Of a stretch of 11,912 nucleotides of DNA, positions 5,238 through 11,396 are shown piece by piece. The stretch comes from Gammaproteobacteria bacterium (lineage in GTDB: Bacteria; Pseudomonadota; Gammaproteobacteria; JABXHR01): contig JABXHR010000283.1 in assembly GCA_013373515.1 (NCBI GenBank), forward strand, positions 1 through 11,912. Direction: 5' to 3'. Position numbers and translations under genes: made by a program. Within the stretch, counting starts at the first letter, position 1. Each line of letters begins with the position of its first letter. The notes beneath the pieces were generated by a model. That model saw only the letters and a list, made by a program, of their open reading frames with translations, had not been told where the DNA came from and ran no database searches.

Positions 5238-6641
5238 GTGGAATTCATTATTTTGGGCGCGATACTGATCGCAGCCGGCTATCTGATTAACAACAAAATC
5301 CAACAACTTAACAACCTCCCTGTAAAACCATTATTAACTTTAATCGGCGCGGCTGCAGTGGGCTGGGGCGTTTTCACCGGCGCATTTTTCTATGCAGAGC
5401 CCGGTTACAAATACCATGTGCGCACCATTACGGGTAATGAAAGCATGGTCAAGGATGTTGGCTATAACATATACCTATTCGGTCGATATAACGCGTGGAA
5501 AAACGCCATGACGGTACAAGCCACCAAAGAAGGCTCCGGTACAGTTGTCGCCGAAGAAGAAAGCGCATCGACCAGTGCCAACTTGGGGCCGCAGACGCTG
5601 GTATTTTTGGATCAGGTCGACGCCGAAGTCACCGCGACCGCGCGTTTCTTGCTGCCCGATGACGAAACCAGCTTTTTACTGCTGGCCCGTCAATTTCGAT
5701 CACCAGAAAATTTGCTGCGCACAGAACTAATTCCTGCCTTTCAAGAAACGCTTGGCTCGACGGCATCTTTGCTGTCCGCAGAAGAGTATTTCTCGGGTGG
5801 ACGAACCCAATTCAATACAGAGTTCCAAAACCAAATGGAGCAAGGCATCTACAATGTCCGCCGCCGCGAGACCATGCAGCGCGTGTCACGTTCGCAAACC
5901 TCGAGCGCCAATGCAAGCTTAGGTATGGATCAACAGGATTTTGGCGATGACCAGCAAGTGGTATTCGTGGTAGAAAAAATCCTAGATGCCAACGGCCAAC
6001 CGCTTCGCAAGTCTCAGAACTTCTCGAAGTTTGGCATTTCTGTGGTGTCGGCGCGTATTACCGATGTCAATCCCAATAGCCGCTTCCGTGAACGTATGGA
6101 GCAAAAGCAAGCCGCAGCCGCAGCCAGAGCAGTTGCCCGCGAACAACGTGTTCAAGAAGAAGAGCAACGCCTCCTGGCCATCACCCGCGGCGAACGCGAA
6201 GTGGCCGAGCGTCAAGCCCAAGCCAAGGTGATCCAAATTGAGCAAACCACGCAAGCAGAGACTGAAAAACAGCTTGTAATTACCCAAGCACGTCAACGCA
6301 ACGAACAAGCCGAGATCGAACGTCAAACTGCGCTAATCAACCTTGAGCGTGCCAAGGTCGATGCCGAATCCAAACGGGTGGCTGCAGATGCTGCTGCCTA
6401 TGAAAAGCGTGCCATTTTGGAAGCGGATAATGCCCTACAGCAAAAACTCGAGGCATATGTGGAAGCGCAAAAATTCTGGGCGGATGCTTTTGCCAAGCGC
6501 AATGTTCCCACTCAAGTCTTTGGCGCGAACCAGTCAGGTGTTGGACAGGACAGTGATATCCAAACCTTTATGGATATCATGACCATGAAAGCGGCCAAAG
6601 ACCTATCTTTCGATCCCTCAATCGAATCGATTGGCAATTAA
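5238..6641 (+). CDS. Flotillin-like SPFH/band-7 domain membrane protein with a long C-terminal coiled coil
   Basis: 467-aa ORF with a GTG start and a good Shine-Dalgarno. Two N-terminal hydrophobic helices are followed by an SPFH-type core (…FGISVVSARITDVNPNSRFRERMEQKQAAAAARAVAREQ matches the conserved C-terminal SPFH block). Then comes ~130 aa of E/Q/R/A-rich heptad-like sequence, resembling the EA-repeat coiled coil of YqiK-type bacterial flotillins. Confidence 0.6.
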   Translation: MEFIILGAILIAAGYLINNKIQQLNNLPVKPLLTLIGAAAVGWGVFTGAFFYAEPGYKYHVRTITGNESMVKDVGYNIYLFGRYNAWKNAMTVQATKEGSGTVVAEEESASTSANLGPQTLVFLDQVDAEVTATARFLLPDDETSFLLLARQFRSPENLLRTELIPAFQETLGSTASLLSAEEYFSGGRTQFNTEFQNQMEQGIYNVRRRETMQRVSRSQTSSANASLGMDQQDFGDDQQVVFVVEKILDANGQPLRKSQNFSKFGISVVSARITDVNPNSRFRERMEQKQAAAAARAVAREQRVQEEEQRLLAITRGEREVAERQAQAKVIQIEQTTQAETEKQLVITQARQRNEQAEIERQTALINLERAKVDAESKRVAADAAAYEKRAILEADNALQQKLEAYVEAQKFWADAFAKRNVPTQVFGANQSGVGQDSDIQTFMDIMTMKAAKDLSFDPSIESIGN

Positions 6642-6839
6642 TGTGGTCGAACGGCGTGCACTCGGGCACGCTTGGGAGCTTTTAAAAGCCCCTCGCATCT
6701 TTCGCGGGGGTACTTGAGGGGTCGACCCTACGACGCTCTGAGCGAGGAAACGTTCGATGCGTCGTTGGGTACTAACGTGGGCAATGATAATCGAGTCCAC
6801 CAACCGCCGAGCGACTTGGAACGCACAAGGCGTAGCCCC
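6642..6839. other. GC-rich, hairpin/palindrome-dense convergent intergenic region (candidate structured RNA, bidirectional terminator cluster or decayed repeat element)
   Basis: No credible ORF; several short overlapping ORFs in different frames are typical of non-coding GC-rich DNA. The region contains consecutive stable hairpins and perfect palindromes:
- GCGTGC-ACTCGG-GCACGC (6654..6671);
- GCTTTTAAAAGC (6678..6689) inside GGGAGCTTTTAAAAGCCCC;
- CCCC(T)CGC-atctttc-GCGGGGG (6689..6710);
- GGGTCGACCC (6719..6728);
- ACGACGC-N22-GCGTCGT (6730..6765) with an inner GAAA-containing hairpin;
- AACGTT;
- CCTTAAGG (6838..6845).
GGGTACT recurs at 6708 and 6767. Confidence 0.3.
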
Positions 6840-7289
6840 TTAAGGCCACCGATAGGCCAAACCAGCGCACAGGCTAAAAAACGCCGCCCAATAAGGCAAA
6901 GCGCCTGACAGTAACAACTCAAAAATCACTTCTGATGTGGTCCATGTGCTGCCAGTCATTGCCATGTATGACCAACAGAGGCCGTAACTTAGCCACAAAA
7001 TACTGACATAAACGCCAATCACTGCAATCAAAGTTCGCCCAGTCATCCCGCTGATTGCGCGACTAAGCACTGCAACACCAATGCTCACCATCAGTGCCAG
7101 CGCAATTGAAACCCACAAATGTTCTGCGATAACCCCCTCGTAAACCGAAAGTCTGCTCAGTGCAGTCACCTCAGCCATGTGCGGCCAAAGACTCCCCCAA
7201 AAGAAACTCAAGCCACCGAGCCAAATGGCCCAAAAACTCACCAGTAAGACACGCATCTGCCACCTGGTCGCTGACCTAAATACACGCAC
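6840..7289 (-). CDS. Small hydrophobic inner-membrane protein, 4 predicted TM helices, unknown function
   Basis: 149-aa ORF from a GTG at 7289. A more likely ATG start at 7256 (MRVLLVSF...) is preceded by AGGTGG. Four hydrophobic stretches of 18-25 aa (LLVSFWAIWLGGLSFFWGSLW; LWVSIALALMVSIGVAVL; LIAVIGVYVSILWLSYGLCWSYMAM; VIFELLLSGALPYWAAFFSLCAGLAY). No recognisable family. Confidence 0.5.
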   Translation of the reverse strand: MRVFRSATRWQMRVLLVSFWAIWLGGLSFFWGSLWPHMAEVTALSRLSVYEGVIAEHLWVSIALALMVSIGVAVLSRAISGMTGRTLIAVIGVYVSILWLSYGLCWSYMAMTGSTWTTSEVIFELLLSGALPYWAAFFSLCAGLAYRWP

Positions 7290-7444
7290 TCACCCTTCGC
7301 ACCGCCGGTGAAAATTTTGATGAATAAAATATGAATTTCAAAAGAATGTTCTTCTGCGGCCGATAGCACCGATGATGATACCGCCATGGAGGCGGAGGCC
7401 AACGCCACAATGTGACTGTGGCAGGTCGTGAACAGGAATCGGTT
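7290..7444. promoter_or_regulatory. Divergent promoter region between the 4-TM membrane protein gene and the large protease/lipoprotein ORF
   Basis: An AT-rich block at 7308..7355 (gtgaaaattttgatgaataaaatatgaatttcaaaagaatgttcttc) contains TTGATG -35-like and TATGAA/AATAAA -10-like hexamers. An AGGAA Shine-Dalgarno at 7433..7437 sits 7 nt before the ATG at 7445. Confidence 0.3.
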
Positions 7445-10400: not shown

Positions 10401-11386
10401 ATCTAACCGACATCGAGCTGTTCGACACCAACGCAGCGAAAAATAGCGCGGTAGCGCTTGGCAAGGTGCCCGGTCAAGTCGACGCCTACTTGCGCGACAA
10501 TCTGTACATCGTCGAAGGTCATGACCGCTTGTATTACTACTACGCCCCGCTTGAAGACAGTGCAGTCTACCAAGTCGATCAAGGGATCGATTGGATGGGC
10601 AAGGTGGGTGATCAGTATTGGCTGACCTCCATGGACGGTCGATTGATACGGCTGACGCATGATAGTGACAACCAACAGTTTATTGAAACGCACAATACAA
10701 CCACCAAGCCAATCGAGTCAGCGGCTTCCGGCGATCATTTTGTAGCATGGAATCTCTATGGCAGCGGGCTGCATCTGAGCGCGCTTGAAGCAGATACACC
10801 ACAGAACGCCACGATTGCACTCGACATGGACAACATCAGCCATTACAAAGTTCACCGCAACCAAATCGCGGTCGGCGGTTTAGGTGAGTTGGCCGTATGG
10901 GAAATCGCACCCGATCTTGAGCCAACGCTACGCTACCGTGCAAACACCGCCAGTGTGATCGACGACATTGTGTGGCTGGACGACAACACCATCGCGTACA
11001 CAGACGGTGCACTCGGCGTCAAAGTGCTCTCGATCGATGGCCAATCCGTCCAAACCCTGTCCAGTATTGAAACCTACAGCACCGTCCGACAACTGGCCTA
11101 CGCGGATGGCTACCTTGCATTGGCTGACGAATCAAATACTCTGCTGGTCTATGACCTCAAAGACCCCAGCAAACCCCAAAATATCGGCGTGCTCGCACTG
11201 GTGCCAGAAATAAAGTCGATCGCGTTCAATCAAGTGCCCGTGCCGGGTACAGACTTAGTCAACCCCTATCTACAGCTAAGTCTTAGCGGCAGTACGCTCT
11301 ATCAGCTTTTTGTGCCACAACGACAGCTTGCATGTGATGGTCTTGCCGCGCTGGAGGATGGTCGACGGCATTGTAGGGTGAATTAG
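7412..11386 (+). CDS. Large secreted multidomain protein: signal peptide, astacin-family (M12A) zinc metalloprotease, CARDB/DUF11-like domain, GlyGly-CTERM-like segment, lipoprotein-type signal/lipobox, then an LVIVD-repeat beta-propeller-like region. Apparent in-frame fusion of two genes.
   Basis: Continuous 1324-codon ORF. The likely real start is the ATG at 7445 (MNIVNLLCTRLSRYRLLAWLAAALPVAGIS is a signal peptide) with an AGGAA Shine-Dalgarno.
- Astacin signature HELGHTAGLLHEHMRSDRD at nt 7964..8020 (HExxHxxGxxHExxRxDRD) and Met-turn SIMHY at 8126..8140.
- DUF11/CARDB-like beta domain, aa ~290-400.
- aa 412-439, AGGSLSGFTALVLSMLTLVTRQTRQRPQ (nt 8645..8728), matches the GlyGly-CTERM architecture.
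- aa 441-460, KLPIITVGPLAALLMVLTGC (nt 8732..8791), is a lipoprotein signal peptide with an LTGC lipobox.
- The C-terminal ~860 aa carry LVIVD-type repeats (e.g. VRQLAYADGYLALADESNTLLVYDLKDPSKPQNIGVLAL at nt ~11084..11203) and other YYY/propeller-like repeats. Confidence 0.85.
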   Translation: MTVAGREQESVMNIVNLLCTRLSRYRLLAWLAAALPVAGISMEYYLPEQPESAIAATLPLGDVTLASSYHVYQDQKITQGDILLPKAGLNARSAIFDNRSLWQNGIVPYVIAEGVSDGLRARLTDAIQHWHDATGLRFEAHTDTHNLGAFVAVYGADICASNIGKVGTVNYLLLSEFCSTGSIIHELGHTAGLLHEHMRSDRDAYIQINTENIRPQALHNFTETAPIGFRNFGDYDFDSIMHYTATAFSANGSPTITARYANVEFGQRDHLSALDRATVNLMYGSDIAIQATLSNQNSTLPTLTLTVHNQGPMGVNDIDLSMASTEGIAAPRFTAGSCAEQSKCVVPHLDAGEQIELIVRLYSRDMGTDHVKVTASSQVHDHDLSNNMHTLPVAINHISHPPMQNDELTSVAGGSLSGFTALVLSMLTLVTRQTRQRPQTKLPIITVGPLAALLMVLTGCEQGSTAIEIRDLQSDTASVSQDAITRNLWASTIPLEAADSIRLLKTTVRDRRGVHHNWDDVSERIDTNQATMSLPAFESDEEFLGEVYRLEADFDGYVIGRVLYQDQNTPKTLALEILPIHDLIYQSTRWTAQRTVSQIEDEKVDQMVNLGLSLIKRIDSIWRTLTLGKTHAYTPFDADAAKLIDFNKPIVLSHYAERVHKQQDRGPIVTELLSMHSYVPDRRLDDILQIGKQVILSNQSACTWLTQRYQSGFFNISDQDLCLDPADLIVHNHNAIVLRVQPNVLQLYTLSNERLIYEDRLTLDVPILDVAAYDSGFAILGDDKVLYYYRTDGAKFESIDSIAVKFGPVGLQVFDNQLMVYGVQNHLYHLQDNLLVHQKKLLTKGIVAQGGVSGKDFVILHGKTRLLVYRQAADGLLAYTEHLTWAPIYFSPPRSDLTLDDVVLIDDQLHGIFSWAFHTGDGTPSARHYYDTAHVIHDDSGLHVDTAYTPVKIGDRKNNAKLKMVGTTLMMVHSDGPPISLGTNFIEVLESAHKFNYLTDIELFDTNAAKNSAVALGKVPGQVDAYLRDNLYIVEGHDRLYYYYAPLEDSAVYQVDQGIDWMGKVGDQYWLTSMDGRLIRLTHDSDNQQFIETHNTTTKPIESAASGDHFVAWNLYGSGLHLSALEADTPQNATIALDMDNISHYKVHRNQIAVGGLGELAVWEIAPDLEPTLRYRANTASVIDDIVWLDDNTIAYTDGALGVKVLSIDGQSVQTLSSIETYSTVRQLAYADGYLALADESNTLLVYDLKDPSKPQNIGVLALVPEIKSIAFNQVPVPGTDLVNPYLQLSLSGSTLYQLFVPQRQLACDGLAALEDGRRHCRVN
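8645..8791 (+). other. Internal junction carrying two sorting signals: GlyGly-CTERM-like motif (8645..8728) directly followed by a lipoprotein signal peptide with lipobox LTGC (8732..8791)
   Basis: Read directly from the translation: GGS, a hydrophobic helix and the basic cluster TRQTRQR, then KLPIITVGPLAALLMVLTGC-EQG. No stop codon separates the two. A GTG at 8750 (V447) is a possible but Shine-Dalgarno-less internal start. The ACG AAG at 8729..8734 would read ATG AAG (MKLPII...) with one substitution. Confidence 0.5.
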
Positions 11387-11396
11387 TGCCCGAGTT

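Follow-up and report, generated by a model that had tools for sequence, protein, structure and literature searches.

Extragenic palindromes of the REP/BIME type serve as stabilizers of mRNA 3′ ends in enterobacteria and pseudomonads, and small RNAs of the DapZ, MicL, and CpxQ types are derived from the 3′ UTRs of messengers. These two systems, together with face-to-face intrinsic terminators and the integron cassette, were compared with a structured spacer located in a stretch of gammaproteobacterial DNA of 11,912 nucleotides (the window). The window encodes an FAA hydrolase and a homogentisate dioxygenase on the − strand, a MarR protein and a GGDEF-EAL protein on the + strand, an SPFH/Band-7 protein (5238–6641, + strand; Pfam PF01145), a hydrophobic orphan ORF of 138 or 149 aa (4-TM ORF; 6840–7256 or 7289, − strand) that is convergent with the SPFH gene, an astacin-like protein of 1313 aa on the + strand, and TauE on the − strand. 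As described in the original prediction, the spacer lies between the convergent SPFH and 4-TM stops and occupies positions 6642–6839 (198 bp), the SPFH stop TAA being at 6639–6641 (+) and the stop of the 4-TM ORF at 6840–6842 (−). The C-terminus DLSFDPSI of the SPFH protein was found to be kept in its homologs, indicating that this is the natural end of the gene, and the last ∼30 nt of the gene are able to pair into the structured region. The GC content of the spacer (59.6%) is the highest among the 14 intergenic regions of the contig (others 28.6–55.2%; contig mean 52%). All 11,912 bases of the window were identical to part of a 73-kb Logan contig of the sequencing run SRR11434631, and the contig-wide comparisons given here refer to 31.3 kb of this source contig, recovered with the window-encoded proteins as handles.

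We consider it about an even chance that the spacer is a non-coding, lineage-specific region holding the 3′ ends of two convergent transcripts. Of the features listed in the original prediction, the folding excess is the only one that exceeds chance. The + strand of the spacer (6642–6839) folded with z = −2.69, with 2 of 200 shuffles as stable, and the segment 6600–6812 reached −85.3 kcal/mol with z = −3.97, with none of 200 shuffles as stable and with the minimum free energy (MFE) structure identical to the centroid. When all 198-nt segments on both strands of the 31.3 kb were ranked by GC-corrected MFE, the one at 6608 on the + strand was placed first of 3114. The − strand showed no excess over shuffles (z = −0.93 and −1.53), and the + strand was more stable than the − strand by 15–19 kcal/mol. 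The spacer had been called unusual for both its structure and its length; the abnormal structure is upheld by the z value of −3.97 and the first rank, but the length alone is ordinary, as another convergent spacer on the contig measures 162 bp. That second spacer is unstructured, and hence structure is no general property of such spacers on the contig. Values of z ≤ −3.97 were also observed in 13 of the 77 homologous SPFH 3′ flanks (17%), so the structure is not exceptional for the 3′ flank of a gene.

The hairpins were judged for persistence by folding with 540 nt of context. Four local hairpins, P3, P5, P6, and P7, persisted with pair probabilities of 0.83–0.99, and the weaker hairpins P2, P4, and P8 also formed, so that the claim of at least five stable stem-loops holds for the presence of several hairpins, four of which persist and three of which are weaker. 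P3 (6653–6672, + strand) is a 7-bp GC-rich hairpin of −11.1 kcal/mol (pair probability 0.97) situated 11 nt past the SPFH stop, and TTTT (6680–6683) lies 7 nt downstream of it. P5 (6689–6710) has −12.1 kcal/mol on the + strand. Its − strand counterpart P5′, in which the hairpin CCCCCGCGAAAGATGCGAGGGG (6710–6689) is followed by CTTTTAAAA, was delimited as CCCCCGCGAAAGAUGCGAGGGG followed by CUUUUAAAA, with −8.1 kcal/mol at 130 nt past the 4-TM stop. The strongest hairpin is P6 (6725–6770; 46 nt with 16–17 pairs; −25.6 kcal/mol on the + strand and −21.2 kcal/mol on the − strand), which showed a pair probability of 0.98–0.99 on both strands and has no T-tract on either side. P7 (6777–6800) is a 6-bp hairpin of −7.0 kcal/mol (+) and −3.6 kcal/mol (−), with a pair probability of 0.99 on the + strand. 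An optional closing stem, P1, is formed on the + strand by a 12-nt inverted repeat (I1; 6610–6621 with 6714–6725; 92% complementary), the left arm of which is conserved SPFH coding sequence. P1 encloses P2–P5 in the isolated 213-nt fold, in both the MFE and the centroid structure, and is replaced by other pairings in the 540-nt fold.

The motifs named in the original prediction were all located in and at the edge of the spacer, namely, GTGCAC at 6656–6661, GGGTCGACCC at 6719–6728, AACGTT at 6749–6754, CCTTAAGG at 6838–6845, and the 12-bp perfect palindrome GCTTTTAAAAGC at 6678–6689, between P3 and P5, as well as GGGTACT at 6708–6714 and 6767–6773. The region had been described as packed with palindromes; these are indeed present, but not in excess over chance. 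Shuffling gave P = 0.26, 0.06, 0.02, and 0.05 for palindromes of at least 6, 8, 10, and 12 bp, respectively, and an equal number was found in 3–21% of segments of this size along the contig. Along the contig, palindromes of at least 10 bp number 40 (∼31 expected) and are evenly spread, and the 12-bp palindrome taken alone is not significant (P = 0.05), as 9% of contig segments hold one. The GGGTACT duplication, likewise, is real but unremarkable, as ∼1.1 repeated 7-mers are expected arithmetically in 198 nt.

The arrangement of P3 and P5′ resembles that of face-to-face intrinsic terminators, since two GC-rich hairpins past convergent stops flank a single T/A tract that offers a U-run on either strand. 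According to the transcript-end reading, the SPFH mRNA (+ strand) would run into P3 as its 3′-end hairpin, and the 4-TM mRNA (− strand) would run into P5′ as its terminator. The two hairpins would face each other across the common tract TTTTAAAA (6680–6687), which could provide a short U-run for either strand; such a shared tract would account for the 12-bp palindrome, here taken as a putative T-tract/A-tract common to both convergent transcript ends. P6 and P7, lying between the 4-TM stop and P5′, would fall within a ∼155-nt 3′ UTR of the 4-TM gene that would also be crossed by read-through from the SPFH gene. In this position they may hinder 3′→5′ exonucleases in a generic way and keep read-through from entering the opposing gene, and thereby possibly stabilize the messengers.

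The spacer differs from standard terminator pairs in that its U-run is only 4 nt, that P3 stands 7 nt away from it, that neither hairpin passes the standard scan, and that it has three further hairpins unneeded for termination. The criterion of the scan was at least 5 T in 8; in P5′, CUUUUAAAA gives 4 U after 1 nt, and in P3 the UUUU starts 7 nt past the stem, and both fall below 5 T in 8. Window-wide, the scan performed at chance level (17 sites found versus 14.5 expected); none of the canonical terminator-like sites in the window was at a gene end, and none was found on the + strand of the spacer. The earlier claim that, of the hairpins, only the minus-strand one looks like a canonical terminator was upheld, as P5′ with CUUUUAAAA is the only terminator-like unit.

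The evidence for transcript ends includes the GC-rich stem-loop found after each stop, i.e., P3 at 11 nt past the SPFH stop and P5′ with CUUUUAAAA downstream of the 4-TM stop. The persistence of GC-rich hairpins in long context, the real folding excess of the + strand, and the lack of an RNA family, coding potential, and further copies were also counted in its favor, as were the hairpin that follows the SPFH gene in the sister genome described below and the ordinary terminators that follow the more distant SPFH homologs of other lineages. Against it stand the short U-run, the distance of P3 from it, and the unsatisfied scan. The folding excess is on the + strand and not on the − strand that would form the putative 3′ UTR (z = −1.38 to −1.53, not beyond shuffles), a pattern more readily reconciled with an RNA from the + strand; the stability of P6 exceeds what a simple barrier requires; and the other long convergent spacer of the contig is unstructured.

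Like REP/BIME elements, the spacer contains a cluster of GC-rich imperfect palindromes (P3, P5, P6, and P7) of 20–46 nt that are 3′ extragenic and non-coding, and a role of its hairpins as exonuclease barriers is plausible. Unlike REP/BIME elements, the hairpins do not follow a common consensus, and no other copy was present in the 31.3 kb searched. A RAYT (TnpA-REP) gene was absent among the genes called in 31 kb. Searches of the spacer with blastn and nhmmer against the 31.3 kb of source contig returned self-matches only, no repeat family of any kind was found there, and the same searches against 80 SPFH loci from GTDB genomes revealed no similar sequence. Within the 31.3 kb covered, the REP-like repeat element suggested in the original prediction is thus not supported. 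Comparison with plasmids by blastn in distant mode gave one 31-nt match (E = 0.2), and comparison with phages gave none. A metagenome scan with the arms of P6 retrieved two near-identical high-GC contigs from one unrelated organism with dissimilar flanks, when ∼1 chance match was expected. Viral scans with P5, with the arms of P6, with P3, and with the P1/P6 junction retrieved only the P3 19-mer; the two contigs that carry it are related, the match falls within coding sequence, and it is attributable to chance.

The Rfam covariance-model scan proposed with the original prediction was run and matched no family. At gathering thresholds, Rfam 15 gave no match in the whole window, and at E ≤ 10 the only match in 6540–6940 was epsC with 13 bits (E = 9.4; threshold 42 bits). 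ARAGORN detected no tRNA or tmRNA gene. This is in agreement with the statement made by eye that the region matches no housekeeping RNA.

Among species-representative genomes and 90%-identity cluster representatives, no relative of the SPFH protein above 69% identity was found, and no synteny was observed at the 80 genomes with SPFH homologs. The 90% cluster of the SPFH protein contains one other member, from GCA_030425885.1 (locus L088), which is 99% identical. The MarR, GGDEF-EAL, and SPFH genes share 84–92% DNA identity with this sister genome, with third codon positions 66–77% identical, and the intergenic regions between MarR and GGDEF-EAL (66%) and between GGDEF-EAL and SPFH (73%) also align. 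The alignment ends at 6635, at the last SPFH codon, and homology is regained only at ∼7302–7340, ∼100–140 nt upstream of the astacin start. Hence, the segment from 6636 to ∼7300, comprising the spacer and the orphan ORF, is lineage-specific and absent from GCA_030425885.1, which carries at the corresponding site ∼360 bp of unrelated, AT-richer sequence without folding excess (z = −1.28). The sister genome has an unrelated 10-bp GC hairpin of −21.1 kcal/mol at 1 nt past the SPFH stop, without a U-tract, of which P3 is the positional analog. As hairpins follow the SPFH stop in both genomes and most other gene ends of the contig have no comparable hairpin, a hairpin is retained at this place though its sequence is not. 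The original prediction had held that a lack of transcription beyond terminator read-through, of further copies, and of conservation would reduce the region to an idiosyncratic spacer; of these, within the available data, no other copy occurs in the 31.3 kb and the region is not conserved in the one relative. Owing to its single-copy status, the lack of an RNA family, and its absence in the closest relative, the spacer is most likely an idiosyncratic transcript-end region.

The astacin-like gene next to this segment was also found to differ in GCA_030425885.1, where it is represented by two overlapping ORFs of 319 aa and 597+ aa (L088 4596–7329). The astacin-like protein shares 63–75% aa identity between the two genomes, and the adjacent SPFH protein shares 99%. 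The split and diverged state of the sister astacin suggests either that the gene is frameshifted or a pseudogene in that genome, or that the two genes have evolved at very unequal rates.

The orphan 4-TM ORF (6840–7256, − strand) encodes a product of 138 aa if started at the ATG, or of 149 aa if started at the GTG at 7289, in which hydropathy indicates 3–4 hydrophobic helices; this product corresponds to NVK32774.1 (HWE20_17350). Searching 5.8 billion clusters and 1.84 billion representatives returned only the self-match, and tblastn showed no trace of the ORF in L088. Of the six frames, it has the best codon score, which is weakly positive. The window contains fewer sigma-70 promoter-like matches than its shuffles (4 versus 10.6 ± 3.4), and two of these matches are located upstream of the orphan ORF, in the divergent region 7314–7402 on the − strand. 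Based on the lack of homologs, its absence from the sister genome, the weak codon score, and the two promoter-like sites, the 4-TM ORF could have arisen very recently or have been newly acquired. Because the spacer varies as a single block with the orphan ORF, a common origin or joint arrival of the two is probable.

Among the explanations that compete with transcript ends, it is unlikely, though worth weighing, that the block 6636–∼7300 was acquired as a unit and that the hairpins are leftover ends or repeats (REP/BIME-, MITE-, or cassette-like) with little present function. The absence of the whole block from the sister genome, where the neighboring intergenic regions align, supports such an insertion, and the ORF without any homolog, the GC content of the spacer, and the sequence CCCT…GGGTACT with which both P5 and P6 start and end, hinting at a duplicated hairpin unit, are consistent with it. 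Among the four readings put forward in the original prediction, the remnant, or part, of an inserted element is the only one that gains support from the sequence comparison, and this support comes from the absence of the block in the relative; a mobile signature and a second copy were lacking in the 31.3 kb. The boundaries of the block have no terminal inverted repeats or target duplication, the sole long inverted repeat has one arm in conserved coding sequence, and transposase, integrase, and RAYT genes were not found within 31 kb. Furthermore, with two genomes compared, the difference may be read as an insertion here or as a replacement in the relative. Rather improbable is a structured small RNA on the + strand (∼6590–6810), either a processing product of the SPFH 3′ UTR or a transcript with an internal promoter of its own. 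Like 3′ UTR-derived small RNAs, the structured domain extends on the coding strand from the last SPFH codons into the 3′ UTR, and the + strand fold, its first rank in 31 kb, its greater stability than that of the − strand, and a promoter-like site at 6553–6580 all speak for it, as does the finding that the two synonymous positions at which the left arm of P1 differs from the relative both favor pairing in the window. Unlike such RNAs, the spacer lacks a + strand terminator, a credible internal promoter, and an Rfam family, and it is not conserved in the sister genome. The promoter-like site, which matches 9 of 12 positions, consists of just the arms of GTGATATCCA…TGGATATCAT, a 10-bp inverted repeat in the SPFH coding region; this repeat forms a high-probability hairpin that mimics a promoter match, and its conservation in the sister genome is explained by the encoded peptide DIQTFMDIM. 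P1, moreover, is lost in longer context, and equally strong z values are common in 3′ flanks. The small structured RNA of the original prediction was therefore not borne out.

It is very improbable that the perfect palindromes act as DNA sites bound by a protein, whether of the operator or of the restriction type. Two palindromes of at least 10 bp do occur within 50 bp, but their counts are in the chance range (P = 0.02–0.06, and 40 versus ∼31 in the contig), a spacer between convergent genes offers no promoter for regulation, and the palindromes are accounted for as parts of hairpins or as the common T/A tract; with no enrichment of palindromes, this part of the original prediction was not sustained either. 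Scarcely to be expected, too, is a hidden small-protein gene or the remnant of a decayed gene in the spacer. Both convergent frames stay open beyond their stops across the whole spacer, that of SPFH to 6908 (89 codons) and that of the 4-TM ORF to 6621 (73 codons), but by simple arithmetic open frames of such length are expected at ∼10% each in sequence of 60% GC. The codon scores of the spacer are negative in all six frames, the read-through peptides do not resemble the C-terminal ends of the SPFH homologs, tblastx of 6600–7420 against all loci gave no match, and PADLOC and NCBIfam searches of the neighboring genes and spacer ORFs gave none. Quite improbable, finally, is a more novel reading, in which the block would be a new kind of small acquired module, with an orphan membrane-protein gene and a GC-rich multi-hairpin 3′ end serving as its recombination or insertion site, or in which the + strand domain would be a lineage-restricted structured RNA from the SPFH 3′ UTR.

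Two specific mobile-element candidates were tried and rejected. The repeat 6610–6621/6714–6725 could be read as a MITE; however, its left arm is conserved SPFH coding sequence, and it shows no target duplication and no copies. P6 could be read as an attC site, since this imperfect palindrome comes after the orphan ORF on the strand of the latter, as in an integron cassette, in which a promoterless orphan ORF is joined to an attC. The first bases of P6, ACCCAAC, match RYYYAAC, and its last bases, GTAGGGT, come close to GTTRRRY. However, P6 measures 46 nt compared to the 57–141 nt of known attC sites, its helix is almost continuous, with neither an unpaired central spacer nor extrahelical bases, the ORF strand reads GTA in place of the essential GTT, and the variable block reaches 83 nt beyond P6. 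Checking by hand showed one perfect core per strand, the partner of which is mismatched in the AAC/GTT triplet, and no intI gene or attC array was found within 31 kb. The attC reading was hence rejected on the basis of length, helix geometry, the GTT triplet, and context.

The locus is of little general significance; at most, it documents how a convergent spacer and an ORFan turn over jointly, as a single block, when two closely related genomes of marine gammaproteobacteria are compared. If the hairpin block were repeated genome-wide, or were a discrete RNA, it would represent a new REP-like family or a new small RNA from an unsampled lineage.

Some further observations were made on other gene ends and intergenic regions. 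An exact 18-nt repeat, CAGCTTTTTGTGCCACAA, is present at 11303–11320 and at 17262–17279 of locus L083, with ∼0.004 such repeats expected by chance in 24 kb. The copies are located ∼70–110 nt before the stops of the + strand astacin and FGE-sulfatase genes, respectively, both of which are convergent with a − strand gene across tiny spacers (10 and 29 bp). They are read in different frames (QLFVPQ versus SFLCH), and the FGE-sulfatase copy lies within a hairpin of −12.7 kcal/mol. The stops of the astacin (+) and TauE (−) genes are only 10 bp apart (11387–11396), leaving no room for terminators. Homogentisate dioxygenase and MarR are separated by an AT-rich divergent region that likewise counts among the most structured segments of the contig. 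It contains a 25-nt inverted repeat (2408–2432/2444–2468), 88% complementary with an 11-nt gap, which looks like the operator of a MarR-type repressor of the homogentisate pathway.
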